DNA of 64,000 nucleotides. Source: a virus. A program made the position numbers and the translations under genes. The stretch spans positions 464 through 64,463 of IMG/VR virus record IMGVR_UViG_3300033545_000002; one strand, given 5' to 3'. Below the pieces are notes generated by a model, which had not been told where the DNA came from, ran no database searches, and saw nothing but the letters and a program-made list of their open reading frames with translations. Shown one piece after another: positions 3,664-17,400 of this stretch (position 1 is its first letter; each line of letters begins with the position of its first letter).

Positions 3664-3936
3664 ATGGATAATTTAAAATCATCGGCGTATCGGTTGCATT
3701 GCGGCTGCATACCGGATGCGTCAGGTTACGGATATTGCCCTGAATGCGAGCTAAAACTAAAGGAAAAGATTTGGAGGCAGATGAGCCATGAAAAGCGCCA
3801 ATACGATAGGCATTTCGCACCAGCGCAAAGCGCGGTATTGGATAAATCAATACGCTATGGTGAGCCGTCTGGTTGCTCCTGTCACATTAATCCACCGTGC
3901 AGTTATTGCACAAATAAAACCGACGAAGATGAATAA
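3664..3936 (+). CDS. Cys-rich (putative zinc-binding) hypothetical protein
   Basis: CGC...CPEC and CSCHINPPCSYC clusters. Confidence 0.65.
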   Translation: MDNLKSSAYRLHCGCIPDASGYGYCPECELKLKEKIWRQMSHEKRQYDRHFAPAQSAVLDKSIRYGEPSGCSCHINPPCSYCTNKTDEDE

Positions 3937-10444: not shown

Positions 10445-10732
10445 TTATTGTTTTGTTGATAGATGATCAGCGGCCATTGTTTCCAGTTTCGTTAACCGGG
10501 TAGATAAGTCGTCAATTTTCCTGGATTGTTCAGCGTCTACTTTATTCACATCTAAAATTGCGCTGGAATTAGCATTGATCAGGGGGATCATTCCAGCGAT
10601 TTTCTCATCCAGTTGGTTGATGCTAAAAAGTACCCACCCGGATAGGGTCATACAAACCGTTAATAGGATAGTATTCAAGTTTAATTGCACGTTCCCGTTC
10701 TTTTTTGTCGTCCCGTTTGTAAGTGGTTCCAT
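10445..10732 (-). CDS. Single-TM coiled-coil protein (holin/antiholin/spanin-like)
   Basis: True start MEPLT at 10732 (the ORF-track extension runs into the IS end); TM segment followed by heptad repeats. Confidence 0.55.
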   Translation of the reverse strand: MEPLTNGTTKKNGNVQLNLNTILLTVCMTLSGWVLFSINQLDEKIAGMIPLINANSSAILDVNKVDAEQSRKIDDLSTRLTKLETMAADHLSTKQ

Positions 10733-10807
10733 TGTTAAAGATAGGTATTTTTTATACATGTGCCGTAAAACCCCTATCCCTTTAGGGTAGGGGATGTAAG
10801 GCACGTT

Positions 10808-11227
10808 TTAGCCCTGTTCTTCAATATATTTTCGTATCGTTTCAGTTGAAGCGTCGCCGGTCGAACAAACAAAATAACCATCCGACCAAAATGTACGCTC
10901 CTTCCAAAAATGTTTTTTCAATTCCGTTGCATATTTTTTCCAGATTCTAAAAGTAGAAAGTTGCTTTAGCTGGTGAACGATTTGAAAAGCGGAAAGCGTT
11001 GGCGGAATATCTACTAAAATGTGGATATGGTCAATATCGCTCTGCATCGTATCAATCGTAAACCCTTTCTCCTGACTAATTTCAAATAACAACTGCTTCA
11101 TGTCTTCGTCCAAACTATCTACCAGCAACTTCTTTCTGTACTTGACTGCAAAAACTATATGCAACTTAATCAAGTATTTGGAATGACTGCTATGGTGGTA
11201 TTTGGCCTTCACAAAACAAATATACAA
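10808..11227 (-). CDS. tnpA: IS200/IS605 Y1 HUH transposase
   Basis: LHIVFAVKYR, HUH motif DHIHIL, FWSDGYF, catalytic Tyr in IRKYIEEQ; non-ATG start (TTG 11227 or GTG 11212). Confidence 0.95.
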   Translation of the reverse strand: MYICFVKAKYHHSSHSKYLIKLHIVFAVKYRKKLLVDSLDEDMKQLLFEISQEKGFTIDTMQSDIDHIHILVDIPPTLSAFQIVHQLKQLSTFRIWKKYATELKKHFWKERTFWSDGYFVCSTGDASTETIRKYIEEQG

Positions 11228-11264
11228 TATTTACAGAAATATATTGAAATGTTTTATATCTTTG
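11217..11264. promoter_or_regulatory. Divergent Bacteroidota -7 promoter elements inside the IS
   Basis: TATATTTG on the minus strand (11217-24, toward tnpA) and TATCTTTG on the plus strand (11257-64, toward the HNH gene). Confidence 0.6.
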
Positions 11265-11297
11265 TAAAAGTGTTTTTTAAAACATTTGGCAATAATA

Positions 11298-11993
11298 ATG
11301 ATAACGGCACAAAGCGAAATTTCAATAAAGGATAGCTACTTGCGAAAAGCAATGTATTCCATATACGATGGTAAATGCTTTTATACTGGTAGAGCAATTC
11401 CATTCGATGATATTCATATTGACCATATAATCCCCAAAGCAAAAGGCGGTAAAGATTGCGTTGAGAATTATGTTTTGTGTTGTGGGTACATAAATTGTAA
11501 AAAAAACGATAAGTTAGATTCTCTTTTTGTTGAAAGAATTTCTCTAATAAATAAACTCTTGTTTGTAGAAAAGGTGGTTTCTGAATACAATAATATTTGT
11601 TTAAATGGAGCAATAGAGGCGAGCATGATAAATATAAATGACTTTTTAAGAAATTATAAACTACATACTCATCCAAAAAGAACCTCCTTTGTACAGGGGG
11701 CAAAAAGAAACTTGCCGTACATTGAATATAGACCAATGGCATCTCCACAAAACGGCAAAAAGGGCTTATCAACGAAAAAGAGGTTCTATTTTGATAAAGA
11801 TTCATTACAGCAGTATTTTAATAAATTCAAATCGCCAGAAGAATGGCGTAATACATTAGAGCAATCATGCGGCACGCATCACGAAAGAGATGTAAATGCC
11901 GCTCAAAATATTAAGAGCTTCGGGCTTCGGAACAAGCCTACAGGTGCTAAGCCAGCAATAGTTGGTTTGCCTGCGAAGCCGCTACACCTTTAG
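11298..11993 (+). CDS. HNH endonuclease fused to a TnpB C-terminal remnant
   Basis: CFYTG...HIDHIIPKAKGG...NYVLCCGYINCKKND (HNH); C-terminal SCGTHHERDVNAAQNIK matches the TnpB zinc-ribbon end / RuvC-III segment. Confidence 0.85.
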   Translation: MITAQSEISIKDSYLRKAMYSIYDGKCFYTGRAIPFDDIHIDHIIPKAKGGKDCVENYVLCCGYINCKKNDKLDSLFVERISLINKLLFVEKVVSEYNNICLNGAIEASMININDFLRNYKLHTHPKRTSFVQGAKRNLPYIEYRPMASPQNGKKGLSTKKRFYFDKDSLQQYFNKFKSPEEWRNTLEQSCGTHHERDVNAAQNIKSFGLRNKPTGAKPAIVGLPAKPLHL

Positions 11994-12005
11994 GTTAGCG
12001 GTAGT

Positions 12006-14147
12006 TCACAAAGGTGCTATTCGTTGATCCCTCATTATGTGCCATCTTATAGGCGAACTTACATTGAATCCAGATACTTGAACTAATACAAGATTTGGTG
12101 TACCCTGTATCGAGTATCCGGATTGATGCGTTGATAGTCCGCTAGAAACATAGGGACTGTTATAGGAAATATATGGCGACCCATACGCATTACCGAATCT
12201 GGATAGCATGACTGTTTGCTGACCAACTCCGGTAAAATGTTGAACGGTATCGTATGAAAAATAAGATAGGTTAAAAACTCCTGAACTATTTGGGGGCAAT
12301 GCAAGCGTATCGGCTGTAACGTACGCGGCGGTGGTTGCTAATATTGAGTGAGAGTATATACTATCCAGTACTACCTTGCCGCCGCTCCCCGGAGAGATTG
12401 GTCCGATTGGGATAGACCCACCTACCGTAATGGTAGCCGTGACAGTTGTTTGTTTGTACTGATCATCCGTTGCGATGATCTGGATAGTATGCGTCCCGGT
12501 AGTGAGCCCTGAAATGGTTGTGGTCGCACTATAGGGTTGAGCGATCGTCGAAGTGGGGCAACCGTGAAGGGTCGTTTCCGATACCCGGATGTTGTTGACC
12601 GTGTGGCCACCGGCTGCTGTTATAGTGGGGCTGAAACTGGTAGATGTACTCGTTATCGTCTGATTCGACCATCCGGTGACGGTTGGGGGCGCTTCCGAAT
12701 AGTAGGTATAGGAGCTGCAATAGGTAGCCGTAGGAAGGGTATCGCAATAGGGGGAGTGACGCGCTACTCCCGCTACATCATTGAAGGGAAAGATCATATC
12801 GAGCCCCAGATGACTGCGAGAAGCCGTGTCGTAACTGTTAGGATAGATACTCTCCGGATTGCCGGAGATATACTGTTGATCATAGACGCCATTAGCCTGA
12901 ACGCCAGCCTTGTTTCTGCCCAGAGAATGGAGGACATGGTTAATATCTTCGGCGATCGTATAACAACCGAAGGTATGTCCAGCATAAACAGCCAGATAAG
13001 TGTGGCAGGAATCAAGTAATTTAGCTTGCACAACCCCGCTTTCCAATGGAACGGGTGTTTGGTCCTGATCCCATGCCCAAGGTGTTTTAGAGGCCCCGTA
13101 AAGCGGTGGACTTCCATAGGTATTCCAATGCGGTTTCGGGTTGATGCCTAAACTGGAACAAACATCATCTCCCCACCCATACAGATAACCGGTATTGAGG
13201 ATAGCGTAGGTGCAAATATCCCCAAATCCAAAGGAGGATATCGATCCGGCCGTCAGGCCTATGTTCGTCATCACATTGGTTGGAGTTGTCGGAGAGCTAC
13301 CCAGTGTTCCGCACCACGTCTGGTAATTGAATCCCCATCCGTATAAATTTCCGTCTGTCCCGAGATAGGCGAACCAGTAGACGCCGAGATCGATTTGTTT
13401 AGGAGTGGCGGCCAGCCCGGTCAATTTGTGGAGCGTCAGGTCCGAAGTCCCATTACCAGTGAAGGAAGAACTATTGCCAGAGGTATAGATTTTCCTTACC
13501 CCCGTTCCGTTTTTGGTCAGCACCATCAGGATGGCATCCCCCTTGGCGTCGATGATGGTATCCCCTGCATCAAACCCCGTAATCGGAACAAAATAGCCGT
13601 TGTCTGTGGTAGGGTTCGAACCATTTCCGCGAATGCCGCCTTCAAGCAATCCTGCCGCCCATAGGGTGTCGCCCTGCGCCCCGGATTTCCATGCTAGACA
13701 AAATGATCCGAACGTATTGGCAGAAGCAAAACACCCTGTAATGTTGTTGAAGACATGGCCCATACTGTCTTGTGTGACTGCGGTAAACTGACTTTGATTG
13801 CCGGCCGATCCACCCAGCCCCAGAGAATGGTTGTCGTTGATGCCCGTTCCGTATAAAATACCTTTTCGAATGGCAAACTGACTATGCAGGCACGACGACC
13901 CTCCGGTCACGCTATCCAGTGTCGCACCAGAACCTGCAATCTGTCCCGGACAAAGAAGGCCCGGCTTTCCATTGGTTCCAGGGGAGCTATTTCCAACTGC
14001 TCCGCCGATGTTGCCGCTTCCGAATCGCATGTTCACGATATCGGCGTATCCGCACTGATATTCACCGGGCCAGACGATATATTGAGGGGATTGGGCAGAC
14101 ACGCAAGTTGCCAGAAAGATCAACGCGATGGTCAATAGTTTTCTCAT
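12006..14147 (-). CDS. Exported RCC1-like beta-propeller plus Ig/PKD-like protein (putative adhesin / receptor-binding protein)
   Basis: Signal peptide MRKLLTIALIFLATCVSA-Q; repeats LGTDGNLYGWG and LNTGYLYGWG; Thr-rich Ig-like segment; ATGA overlap at 14147. Confidence 0.7.
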   Translation of the reverse strand: MRKLLTIALIFLATCVSAQSPQYIVWPGEYQCGYADIVNMRFGSGNIGGAVGNSSPGTNGKPGLLCPGQIAGSGATLDSVTGGSSCLHSQFAIRKGILYGTGINDNHSLGLGGSAGNQSQFTAVTQDSMGHVFNNITGCFASANTFGSFCLAWKSGAQGDTLWAAGLLEGGIRGNGSNPTTDNGYFVPITGFDAGDTIIDAKGDAILMVLTKNGTGVRKIYTSGNSSSFTGNGTSDLTLHKLTGLAATPKQIDLGVYWFAYLGTDGNLYGWGFNYQTWCGTLGSSPTTPTNVMTNIGLTAGSISSFGFGDICTYAILNTGYLYGWGDDVCSSLGINPKPHWNTYGSPPLYGASKTPWAWDQDQTPVPLESGVVQAKLLDSCHTYLAVYAGHTFGCYTIAEDINHVLHSLGRNKAGVQANGVYDQQYISGNPESIYPNSYDTASRSHLGLDMIFPFNDVAGVARHSPYCDTLPTATYCSSYTYYSEAPPTVTGWSNQTITSTSTSFSPTITAAGGHTVNNIRVSETTLHGCPTSTIAQPYSATTTISGLTTGTHTIQIIATDDQYKQTTVTATITVGGSIPIGPISPGSGGKVVLDSIYSHSILATTAAYVTADTLALPPNSSGVFNLSYFSYDTVQHFTGVGQQTVMLSRFGNAYGSPYISYNSPYVSSGLSTHQSGYSIQGTPNLVLVQVSGFNVSSPIRWHIMRDQRIAPL

Positions 14148-14452
14148 TGGCAGGGACATTTAAAGTACTTGTTTGGGTTCATGAACCTGAGATTCCGCTT
14201 CTGTTTTTTGGCGTCATACCTCTGCGGATCCCATTGCTGATAATACTCGAAAGCCATCTCCCTGAAATGTCTGGCTCGCCCATCGTAGAAGACAAAACTG
14301 TCTATTTCTCCAGCGTTCCGTGCGCAGATAGCCCGGCAGCGGTTAATGAAGAAGCTGTCTGTGGTCCGGTGCAGATTACACTGGACGCTATCAGTTTTCT
14401 GCGCCATCGCAGCCAGCGGGAGGAAAAAGAATATAGTTATAACGTATTTCAT
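14144..14452 (-). CDS. Small exported Cys-containing protein
   Basis: Signal peptide MKYVITIFFFLPLAAMA-Q. Confidence 0.7.
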   Translation of the reverse strand: MKYVITIFFFLPLAAMAQKTDSVQCNLHRTTDSFFINRCRAICARNAGEIDSFVFYDGRARHFREMAFEYYQQWDPQRYDAKKQKRNLRFMNPNKYFKCPCQ

Positions 14453-14464
14453 TTTTGAATATCT

Positions 14465-17400
14465 CTAAAATCCTGTGATAGAATAGTACCAACTGTATTG
14501 TGTTGCAGGGGTAAGGGCCGTTGTTCCGGCATTAATTGTCCAACTTAAGGGTGAGGCTGTGCTGGCATAGACCATTGTTACACCAGACAATAGGGCTGTA
14601 GCTGAATTTGCCGGGGTAAGGGTAATGAAGGGTTGGTTGGTATATCCAGAACTACCAGCAAATGTAATGGTAGCAATAATAGCGTTCGATCCAGAAGGCG
14701 TCGTCCCTATGGTAACAAACACTTGCCCCCCAACATTTGTACCATTAATTGAAATAGTAGGGGATGTTCCAGCTCCACCACCAGCGGCAATTCCGGGAAC
14801 AGAAGAATTACCGAAAATCAAATTGATGCCAGTTCCGTTGGCAGTGAAACTCCATATCCCAGTTGCCGTTTTGGTTCCTGCAATCGTTTGTGTTCCGGTG
14901 GACAGAATACCCGGATTACTTCCGGTGGCATACCCTAGCGTTAATGTGTTTCCTGAAATAGTAGCTCCATTGGTATAAGAGGTAGACGGCGAACCTATTG
15001 TTGTAACGCCGCCCCCAATTGCTGATACCGGCACTTCATCCCAAGCACTATCTGTACGATGAACCAGTATTTGATATCCTGTTCCCGGAGCCCCCGATAG
15101 ATTATTCAAATATTGTGGAACGGTGAAGTAATTTATTCGGTTGGTGAAGGCGAAATTGTAGGGATTTCCGGTTAAAAATCCGGCTAAATTAAGGCTATCG
15201 CCAACCGGCCAGATGTCTCCCGGTCGTATCACATCAGGGATGGTCTTTCCGACAATCGTTCCGGCCACCGTCATCGTTCCTGTTGTCGAGGATGAGAAAG
15301 TAACTGACGACCGGGTGCAGACCGTTATTACATAAGTGCCGTTGTAGCCAGATGGGGCAACTCCTGCAATAATGACCTTTGAACCGACTTTGAATGGCGG
15401 GATATCCTGCTGGGCGAAAAAGATCGTCACCGCGCTTCCGGTCGCTGTTATGGATGTGATCGTCAGGTTGTACCAGGTGATGTGAAGGGATGGGAAGCTG
15501 TCGAGATTGTTCCCCTGCGGTATGTCCACCATAGCGTAAGGCGTCTTCATCGAGAACCCCACGCGTTCGGCATCAGCACCGTTGCCTGCAATTATGGCAC
15601 AACCAGAACATCCGACCTGAGCGTTCTGCCCCAAAGCCGTGGAATTGGACAGGTTCGCCGTGCTGTCTGCACTGCCGATATTTCCGGCACTATACCCTAT
15701 ATAGGTATTGAATGAGCCGGATGTATTTGCCGTTCCTGCCGTGTAACCCACTCCCACATTCCCAGTGCCGGTCGTATTTTGAAAAACTGATCGACCTAAC
15801 CCACTATTGTAATTTCCGTTCGTTGTATAGAAGGCAAATTGCCCTATGCCCATATTATAAAGGCCGCTCGTCAAAGTGAAAAGAGACTGCGATCCTTCTG
15901 CACTATTACCGCTGCCGGTCGTCAAATGATTTAGGGCTTGATATCCGTTGGCTGTGTTTTGAGTGGCAGATGAAGTAGTGGCGGAAGCGAGAGCCTGATA
16001 ACCGACCGCCACGCTTTCAAGACAACCACTACAAGCGTCCAATGCCTGATTCCCGATAGCCACGTTATCTAGCGAAGTAAGTGCATTTTGCATGGCATTA
16101 TTCCCGATGGCCGTATTGCCGGTAAAAGATGCTGATGCTAAACCTTGACCATAAAGTGCGTATCTTCCAAGGGCGGTATTATCTGTGGGGGTGACACCTA
16201 TACCCCCCGCATAAAAGCCAATATAATTGTCATACAAACCAGTCCGATAGTTGACAGGAGAGGCCGGATAACAAAAACACAATCCTTCCGTATCCACAAT
16301 AACAGGTCCTCGCCCAAGTTCATAATTGTTTACTAGCAAATCCCCAGTGGCAAAAGTGGCTATGTATGGGCTATTGGATTGGGTCAATTTACTCGGATAG
16401 GGGATAAAGCTCCCCACCGTAAGATCATTAGCGATTACCCCAAACCCCTGTACCTCCAAACCCCCTACTCTTTGTAGAGAAGGGATAGCGGCCAATATAG
16501 CGTTCTTTATGTTGTAATGACCCGAACCGTTCGGATGTAAACTGTCGGACCAAACAGCAGCGTAACCGTCTCTGGCCTGCGTGTAGGCGTAGGCATTTGC
16601 GAATAAAGTCCCGAGCGAAGTCGCTGTCGTTTGCATTTGTGTGACGTAGGGAAGAAAAAGGGCATTATTCGTTGAGCCGGAGTAAGGTGCGCCGATCCAA
16701 ATAATCTGATTGAGCGACCAGCCTCTGGCAACGCAGGTATCGGTCACGGTAACCATCGCTGCCGCGAAAGTTGTTGTAGTAATCGGCGCGTCTCTGGCGT
16801 CATTGGCGAGATATTCGAAAGTGATATATCTGTAGTTGCTATTCCAGCGGGGGATATCGGCGATACGATCGATCATTGAACTGTCACCCGTCGACCGTTT
16901 AACGAGGGTTGTTCCTGATATTCCTCTATTCATGCCTATAGTTCCCAAATCGTGATTCAGTTGATAGGCAAACCCCAACGAGAGATAAATATTAGCAGTT
17001 GCTACGGATGTATGAGGAAGCCCTTGTCCCGATGCGGTTCCAGCTGTGATAGATGTACCGAAATTCCAAGTTGTATCTACCTGCGAGAATACGGAATCCC
17101 CCACTTGATTAACTCGATGCGTAAGATGGTTATTCGCATACGCGCTGTCAAATGCTTTAGGACCGCTGAAAGTTTGAGCCGCATTATTGACCATTCCCGG
17201 AACGGTTGTCGATGCGCTTTGGGCATAAATACTTGACCCATTAATCCTAAGACCATTGGGCAATCCCGCCGCACTGTCGATGGGACCGACGAGCGTCACT
17301 CCGCTACCACCCCCACCGCCTCCTGAAGGAATAGGCAATTTGTATAATTGCCCTGCAATCGTTTCGATCAATACGCTATCGGTAGACAGGGCCGTGCCCT

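Follow-up and report, generated by a model that had tools for sequence, protein, structure and literature searches.

The 64,000-nucleotide stretch analysed here (the window), i.e., positions 464 to 64,463 of the virus record IMGVR_UViG_3300033545_000002, is confirmed to contain at 10756-12009 a complete IS200/IS605-type element, which carries an intact tnpA gene and an open reading frame (ORF) of 231 aa joining an HNH nuclease to the last residues of TnpB. The explanation proposed, to which a probability of about 0.62 is given as a whole, is that of a recombinant element of the IS200/IS605 family in which an HNH gene has taken the place of tnpB; the HNH protein would be of the homing type and the TnpB tail a passenger. 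The locus led to a family of IS605-type elements with a stand-alone Cas9-like HNH in the orfB slot, where it is accompanied by a complete TnpB, by no more than a stump of tnpB, or by neither. All coordinates are positions of the window unless a contig is named; L-numbers designate the contigs or loci compared and P-numbers the proteins.

The replacement is best seen by comparison with two sister contigs, L003 and L002, which are the same phage with a full tnpA-tnpB element. L003 (tnpA plus a tnpB of 382 aa) is 98% identical to the window over 10630-11243 and 99% identical over 11865-12072, and its tnpA is 99% identical to that of the window. L002 extends into the neighbouring gene of 713 aa and matches 11865-15993 at 99.5%. 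In both, the same insertion site is occupied by the tnpA-tnpB form. Between the conserved flanks, the 621 bp of 11244-11864 replace 1,037 bp of L003 (positions 616-1652 of that contig), i.e., the part that begins 17 bp ahead of the start of tnpB and ends near codon 340. The segment brought in resembles the HNH-only elements of L004 (89% identity, over 11231-11854) and L005 (79%), the flanks being dissimilar; L004 is a different phage context and nothing else in it matches the window. In the HNH tree, the present protein is sister to that of L004, within a clade of HNH-only elements. A three-way alignment places both recombination junctions (about 11243/11244 and 11864/11865) in short shared motifs.

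The following course of events is proposed. The ancestor would be of the ordinary kind, with tnpA and tnpB between a left and a right end, as still found at the same site in near-identical phage contigs, and the donor of the 621-bp HNH gene with its leader would be a related non-autonomous element reduced to left end, HNH and right end. The incoming segment would have replaced all of tnpB but for the final 145 nt, the exchange taking place at short motifs common to both partners, and the ORF would run on, by chance in frame, through the 42 leftover tnpB codons. The HNH protein would be a homing-type enzyme residing in the orfB slot of this IS605 subfamily and spreading among element copies through gene conversion induced by breaks. 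It would not stand in for TnpB as a guide-RNA-dependent nuclease, and the chemistry of TnpA would not require it.

Profiles HNH_4, HNH_5 and HNH match residues 31-83 of the ORF (in the numbering of a 235-aa form starting at an upstream TTG; the 231-aa form has its ATG at 11298 and its stop codon at 11991-11993). Residues 193-213 match just the final positions of TnpB profiles (44-60 out of 60 for PF07282 and 339-359 out of 360 for NF038281), and a further TnpB profile is matched at positions 338-366 of 399 only. Profile searches of the ORF gave no match to PLMP, RuvC-I/II or the bridge helix. Two identities were rejected: (i) TnpB, as only the last 20-30 positions of its profiles match and its other domains are without match; (ii) IscB, as the match to its profile (NF040563) is limited to positions 182-252 and PLMP is lacking. 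The original prediction, made from the letters of the window, had read the ORF as an N-terminal HNH domain with an in-frame TnpB C-terminus, as neither IscB nor TnpB, and as a nuclease gene standing where tnpB belongs. The profile matches, confined to HNH and the end of TnpB, bear out the first two points, and the full 382-aa tnpB of L003 and L002 at the same site bears out the third.

It was also inferred that the fusion of HNH to the TnpB tail would be a new architecture, and this does not hold. A search of 5.8 billion proteins with the ORF returned 27 hits, 25 of which are HNH proteins that stand alone, measure 161-218 aa and have no alignment beyond residue 189 or so of the ORF; P0001, with 92% identity, is the closest. 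The two others are a 382-aa TnpB (P0026), whose last 42 residues are 100% identical to the tail of the ORF, and a weak HNH_4 match of 168 aa. None of the 27 hits spans more than 79% of the query and no homologue found has the tnpB tail. In the relatives, the tnpB remnants lie behind stop codons or are shrunken to a few codons. In the AlphaFold model of the whole ORF, the tail (residues 196-235) has a pLDDT below 50 and is thus predicted to be disordered. The prediction had proposed a search for the same fusion beside tnpA at independent loci: the HNH gene was indeed found there (L008, L020, L021, L023 and L032), the fusion to the TnpB tail was not. The exact 231-aa protein occurs on contigs of this virus only. 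The fusion is a recent chimera and a one-off by-product, and as a protein it is of little interest in itself.

It could be argued that the chimera was made by the assembler, which would have joined two same-ended elements of one metagenome. The source root metagenome lends itself to this: the hairpin words of the left end (LE) and right end (RE) are found at a depth of about 50, versus 20.7 inside the element, another unitig of depth 5.5 shares these ends but encloses 1,182 different letters, about what a tnpB-only element would measure, and two other flanks are present as loose ends. Several same-ended elements thus co-exist in this sample. However, the junctions are far from the shared ends and their motifs are too short for a k-mer join; moreover, a single independent Logan unitig of the source sample spans 10773-12003 and crosses both junctions at a depth of 20.7, identical to that of the flanks, so that no artefact of assembly is at play. 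The same protein is also obtained from both assemblies, JGI and Logan. The chance left to this explanation is practically negligible and it is rejected.

The transposition part of the element is intact. The tnpA gene (10808-11227, minus strand) matches Y1_Tnp over the full profile (E 1.8e-36) and the IS200 transposase equivalog NF033573 (E 6e-39); in the alignment to IS608 TnpA (2VHG), the HUH motif (DHIHIL) and the C-terminal YIExQ tyrosine are conserved. The ends are subterminal imperfect hairpins on both sides, and terminal inverted repeats are absent. The guide/cleavage pairs AAAA/TTAT and GAAG/TCAC can be read directly from the sequence. An intact TnpA with its HUH motif and catalytic tyrosine, and correct pairs at both ends, had been announced in the original prediction; both readings stand.

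A covariance model of the LE (R2) matches 10745-10810 at E 9e-17 as well as the LEs of 10 other loci, and a model of the RE (R1) matches 11963-12009 at E 1.7e-9. Related elements in other genomes are flanked by the same end types (covariance-model matches of E 1e-7 to 1e-21). The right-end stem is 95.7% paired with compensatory changes in 6 of its 7 pairs, a level which none of 500 shuffles reaches and which slid registers are also nowhere near. The ends are more than chance matches. Most relatives, including those without tnpA, lie 3' of TTAT and obey the guide rule, and TTTAT precedes the LE in L004, L005, L008, L017, L018 and L021. The HNH-only element of L007 (3849-3915) has the target TTAG with the guide AAAC in place of TTAT with AAAA, a compensatory change in target choice as predicted by the IS608 guide rule. 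Since both ends and both guide/cleavage pairs are retained, the element of the window should still move by peel-and-paste transposition through TnpA. The well-founded part of the explanation is transposition driven by TnpA, which would act in cis in the present element and in trans on the forms that carry HNH only.

The HNH gene is not confined to this site. It recurs in IS605-type elements in three arrangements: (i) tnpA-HNH-tnpB; (ii) HNH followed by a tnpB tail and the right end; (iii) left end, HNH and right end only. The first is found in L008/L009, L020, L021 and L023, to which L019 (HNH-tnpB) can be added; the full tnpB begins 1-45 bp past the HNH stop, and the TnpBs beside HNH genes retain the D-E-D residues. 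As for the second, in L010 and L034 HNH is followed by stop codons, then by a tnpB stump that encodes RuvC-III with or without the zinc finger, and then by the right end; in L032, a stump of tnpB accompanies tnpA and a broken HNH. The third is represented by discrete cassettes of about 800 bp in L004, L005, L007 and L017, with identical borders in four unrelated contexts: on the left TTTAT, a few bases, the GCGTAAAACCC-hairpin, then GGGATGTAAGCGAC; on the right GAAGCC, a hairpin, then GGTAGTTCAC. These borders are the transposon ends of the type of the 10756-12009 element. With the covariance models, both ends are found around HNH in five genomic contexts (L004, L005, L007, L017 and L034/L038), and both flank tnpA-HNH-tnpB in L008. 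In L022, L046 and L048, HNH is directly followed by the right end of a different IS605 subtype. The C-terminal extension of the P0001 type (PSLEGAL...) matches the extreme C-tail of the TnpB of the L042 type; such ORFs thus also read into a shrunken tnpB remnant.

This distribution bears on a further alternative, namely that an ordinary free-standing homing endonuclease gene of phages landed once in this element by pure accident, with no wider link to IS605. The fusion protein is indeed limited to this virus and the junctions at short motifs resemble illegitimate recombination. However, about 16 of the 20 loci of the well-supported core HNH clade show IS605-type ends, tnpA, tnpB or a tnpB tail, even the close «free-standing» relatives have these same ends on either side, and the covariation of the right end argues against chance matches of those ends. 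A single accident is very improbable and is rejected.

The HNH genes have also changed backbones. The present site, with the backbone of L003 (98-99% identity) and an HNH close to that of L004, is one case. In L053 and L056, tnpB is 88-91% identical (DNA) to that of L008 and HNH is absent; in L008, HNH with a short leader lies between the orfB leader motif and the tnpB ATG. L019 and L020 have TnpBs which are 78% identical and HNHs which are 42% identical and fall in different clades, the DNA similarity beginning exactly at the tnpB ATG. Moreover, HNH lies upstream of the leader motif in L019 and downstream of it in L008. On more than one occasion, then, an HNH gene has come into one and the same interval of about 50 bp. 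Sharp cassette borders, with presence or absence among near-identical carriers, are seen for the present locus versus L003/L002, L008 versus L053/L056 and L019 versus L020.

A homing-type enzyme that nicks or cuts under protein guidance, residing in the orfB slot and spreading between copies, would explain together the fixed place behind the orfB leader, the patchy presence, the exchanges of backbones and the conversion at this locus. Taken separately, this part of the explanation is tentative and is held at somewhat less than even odds.

The HNH family consists of proteins of 170-210 aa made of an HNH of the Cas9/IscB type and a small C-terminal domain. The best NCBIfam matches of the ORF are the HNH parts of Cas9d (E 3e-15), Cas9 and IscB, with HNH_4 at E 7e-9; Cas9d chains of the PDB match HNH by sequence (E 2e-11). 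By structure, the HNH fold is matched by IscB (Z 6.5-6.7, rmsd 2.5-3.1 A) and, with Foldseek, by the HNH domains of Cas9. About 12 residues precede the HNH helix. The first 100 residues form the HNH, followed by two long helices and an alpha/beta domain (aa 109-186). The catalytic residues D-H, N and N are invariant across the family and present in the ORF, and the HNH part modelled alone (AF2) has a pLDDT of 89.8. The C-terminal domain, which may bind DNA, is confidently folded in the model, but its likeness to small DNA-binding domains (XPA/Rad14, pSK1 Par and MerR-type) is weak, with Z 4.6-5.0. Foldseek searches of the PDB and of the AlphaFold DB clusters gave matches to the HNH part only.

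In a profile search of 1.84 billion representatives, some 50 clusters had E values below 1e-30, and the majority of those ranked highest matched the full profile (core plus C-terminal domain). A far larger set of proteins shares the HNH core alone, and these wider relatives bear other N-terminal extensions or domains. The PLMP motif was sought in the matches of about 180 aa with an N-terminal extension and was found in none, other N-terminal domains being present instead. A pattern scan of reference prokaryote genomes for the HNH family matched nothing related, and tblastn against GenBank phages gave no match. Most placeable loci are phage contigs.

What remains of tnpB in the window lies within the right-end module (11865-12009, 145 nt), which folds at -55.2 kcal/mol (z -4.5). 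HNH-bearing derivatives retain 110-185 nt of right end (L010, L034 and those of the L004 type were compared). The remnants are located at 11865-11993 in the window, and at 2829-2981 in L010, 676-842 in L034 and 5575-5633 in L004; the remnant is fused to HNH in the window and in the L004 type, lies behind stop codons in L010 and L034, and is out of frame in L032 only. The tnpB tail would thus be the passenger of a cis-acting right-end module (the hairpin recognised by TnpA plus the former omega-RNA region) and not a protein domain; it would survive because this module is needed in cis. The alignment of nine right-end modules was too divergent for a consensus RNA structure, the terminal hairpin alone being recovered, and an Rfam search of 10700-12100 gave nothing at E up to 1, i.e., no RNA of the HEARO/IscB type.

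Conversely, in line with the original prediction, the HNH with its TnpB tail could be a functional substitute of TnpB that cuts the vacated donor site (TTAT plus the right flank), maybe with an RNA of the right end. The HNH holds the tnpB slot behind the same leader and is of the Cas9/IscB type. HNH-only derivatives always retain more of the right end (the 110-185 nt given above) than the TnpA hairpin, and in the strongly folded 145-nt module one stem has two compensatory changes between this locus and L034. Five points argue against this: (i) neither sequence nor structure comparisons detected anything resembling PLMP, WED, REC, a bridge helix or another known RNA-binding part in the HNH protein; (ii) the tail is unique to this locus and disordered in the model; (iii) HNH co-exists in several elements with a TnpB whose D-E-D residues are intact, and is thus an addition there, not a substitute; (iv) a protein-only enzyme is not retargetable to each new flank; (v) elements of the L004, L022, L046 and L048 types have short or quite different 3' modules. 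It is thus unlikely that the HNH does the job of TnpB. The predicted complex between the TnpB of L008 and the neighbouring HNH has a score of 0.00, which counts neither way on binding.

The HNH could also be an accessory or cargo gene, stably inherited by an IS605 subfamily for a benefit other than homing; it might nick DNA to supply single-stranded DNA to TnpA, or serve the phage in the exclusion of competitors, in defence or in counter-defence. It has persisted in tnpA-HNH-tnpB elements that diverged long ago, ending there 1-45 bp ahead of tnpB, with conserved catalytic residues and mostly on phage contigs, and the other N-terminal extensions or domains of the wider HNH-core relatives are of the same tendency. 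However, HNH lineages are swapped between close backbones and are present or absent among near-identical elements, which is more typical of a selfish module, and this candidate comes with no known partner or target. An accessory gene is thus regarded as doubtful, and the homing-type enzyme is preferred.

Several observations weigh against the homing explanation and must be set beside it. First, the homing idea is drawn from distribution patterns among sequences only, and the fold matches of the C-terminal domain are weak (Z at most 5). Second, the empty site of this insertion had no match in viral contigs, whether the joined flanks or the left flank alone was the query. Third, in the tnpA-HNH-tnpB clade (L008, L020, L021 and L023), HNH has diverged to about 50% identity alongside its backbone, which also fits a stably inherited accessory gene that benefits the element. 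Fourth, the retained right-end modules are all longer than TnpA alone should need and that of the window is strongly structured, so that an RNA role of the module is possible. Fifth, three to four arrangements (the window, L010, L034 and the L004 type) have their tnpB remnant in frame with HNH, which could hint at a function of read-through products.

Among known systems, the closest relative of the HNH family is IshB, a comparison made by description only. IshB is an «HNH-like OrfB» of about 180 aa, with HNH and without RuvC, encoded as orfB of IS200/IS605-type elements (PMC10734217, PMC11610941, PMC13284715), and has been described as PLMP plus HNH, in the IscB lineage (PMC10734217, PMC11610941). 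The likeness covers size, the absence of RuvC, the orfB position and an HNH of the Cas9/IscB kind. The differences, again by description, are that (i) the HNH starts here about 12 residues from the N-terminus, with no match to PLMP and only positions 182-252 of the IscB profile aligning; (ii) no RNA of the HEARO/IscB type was found at this element; (iii) backbones, right ends and tnpB remnants are here of the TnpB type.

The backbone itself resembles IS605, IS608 and ISDra2: it has a Y1 HUH TnpA and subterminal hairpins, its guide/cleavage pairs obey the IS608 rule, it is inserted 3' of TTAT, and its right-end module derives from tnpB. It differs from them in that tnpB is cut to 42 codons with an unrelated stand-alone HNH gene in its place, and in that HNH lies, in relatives of this element, between the orfB leader and an intact tnpB. 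In IS605-type elements, homing is known for TnpB with its omega-RNA (Meers et al., 10.1101/2023.03.14.532601). The loss of tnpB and/or tnpA with retention of the ends and of the right-end RNA region is shared with non-autonomous IS200/IS605 derivatives (PATE-like, stand-alone omega-RNA), from which the HNH elements differ by carrying a protein-coding nuclease gene of a different fold. The nesting of one selfish module in another is shared with IStrons, in which another selfish element is nested in IS605 (10.1101/2023.11.20.567912).

Phages have free-standing genes of HNH homing endonucleases, with which there is also likeness: the HNH enzyme is small, has a possible DNA-binding domain apart from the HNH and comes with its own leader, and there is a patchy presence among near-identical genomes, and movement as a short cassette. 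I-HmuI and the mob genes of T4 are examples of such genes. In contrast to them, the present cassette lives in and travels with an IS200/IS605 element, and its close relatives are bounded by ends of the TnpA type and not by plain intergenic DNA.

Cas9 and Cas12 have their origin in IS200/IS605 elements, whose accessory nucleases (TnpB, IscB, IsrB and IshB) are the subject of intensive study. Literature searches gave no description of a stand-alone HNH in TnpB-type IS605 elements, and a 2026 review of homing endonucleases and OMEGA systems does not mention one. If the HNH is a protein-guided homing nuclease, these elements would be selfish in three layers (a phage, an insertion sequence within the phage, a nuclease cassette within the insertion sequence), and in them a nuclease that can be programmed would have given way in nature to one that cannot. 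Should the enzyme depend on the RNA of the retained right end, it would be a very small new RNA-guided nickase. Either way, it is a concrete candidate for the possible origin of the HNH domains of the IscB/Cas9 lineage. A broader proposition, rather unlikely at present, is that the stand-alone Cas9/IscB-type HNH is a regular and exchangeable third module of TnpB-type IS605 elements, located immediately upstream of tnpB or instead of it, and being either a second nuclease that works with the right-end RNA or TnpB, or of the kind ancestral to the HNH insertion of IscB/Cas9.

Table 1. Layout of the IS200/IS605-type element and of its immediate borders (window positions; LE stands for the left end and RE for the right end).
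Feature	Position	Strand	Basis or remark
Target/cleavage tetranucleotide TTAT	10752..10755	+	directly left of the element; read from sequence
LE	10756..10810	+	guide AAAA 10767-10770, subterminal hairpin 10771-10793; alignment and covariance model
tnpA, Y1 HUH transposase, intact	10808..11227	-	Y1_Tnp, NF033573, alignment to IS608 TnpA
Final bases common to the tnpA-tnpB sister element	11228..11243	.	blastn against L003 stops at 11243; similarity to L004 begins at 11231
Left recombination junction	~11243/11244	.	in shared motif TAYAGAAATA; three-way alignment
HNH segment, 621 bp, replacing 1,037 bp of tnpB	11244..11864	+	brings its own upstream leader
Chimeric ORF, 231 aa	11298..11993	+	HNH protein aa 1 to ~189 plus TnpB C-terminal 42 aa
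Cas9/IscB-type HNH catalytic core	11376..11534	+	D42-H43, N57, N66 (231-aa numbering)
C-terminal alpha/beta domain of the HNH family, possible DNA-binding domain	11622..11855	+	aa 109-186; AF2 model
tnpB remnant: last 42 codons (RuvC-III motif, C-tail) and stop	11865..11993	+	in frame with the HNH ORF
Right-end module, 145 nt, retained	11865..12009	+	part of tnpB normally encoding the omega-RNA scaffold, plus RE
RE signals	11975-12009	+	guide GAAG 11975-11978, hairpin 11979-12001, cleavage site TCAC 12006-12009

The features are collected in Table 1. In the HNH leader, a TAnnTTTG-like box (11257-11264) may be a promoter box. The source virus record measures 86 kb and has inverted terminal repeats. 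The element sits exactly on the stop codon of a minus-strand gene of 717 aa (12006-14159): this gene ends with ...CCT TTG TGA in the presence of the element and with ...CCT TTA TAA in the reconstructed empty site. The protein ends with P-L in both cases and the insertion is thus silent for this gene.

In L018, which is cut by the contig end, the covariance models place the LE of an HNH element at 3867-3930 on the plus strand. A complete tnpB-only element lies on the opposite strand (LE 3790-3861, RE 2545-2596), so that the two left ends stand head to head, 5 bp apart; the boundary TTTAT/AAA of one element makes the TTTAT target on the other strand. In L032 (1450-3385), the HNH gene is in two pieces about 1.4 kb apart and the intervening DNA resembles another inserted gene; from its sequence, this HNH copy is probably dead.

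An identical HNH protein of 177 aa (P0021) is found in two contexts, L040/L041 and L042, which diverge about 96 bp past its stop: one leads to genes of a phage capsid region and the other to a complete tnpB-only element, whose left end is about 310 bp downstream of HNH. It must be added that the phage of the window encodes a second, unrelated HNH protein of 150 aa, of the CxxC...HH...CxxC type (beyond the limits of the window, G000:C1:71009-71461; L063 1240-1692, minus strand).

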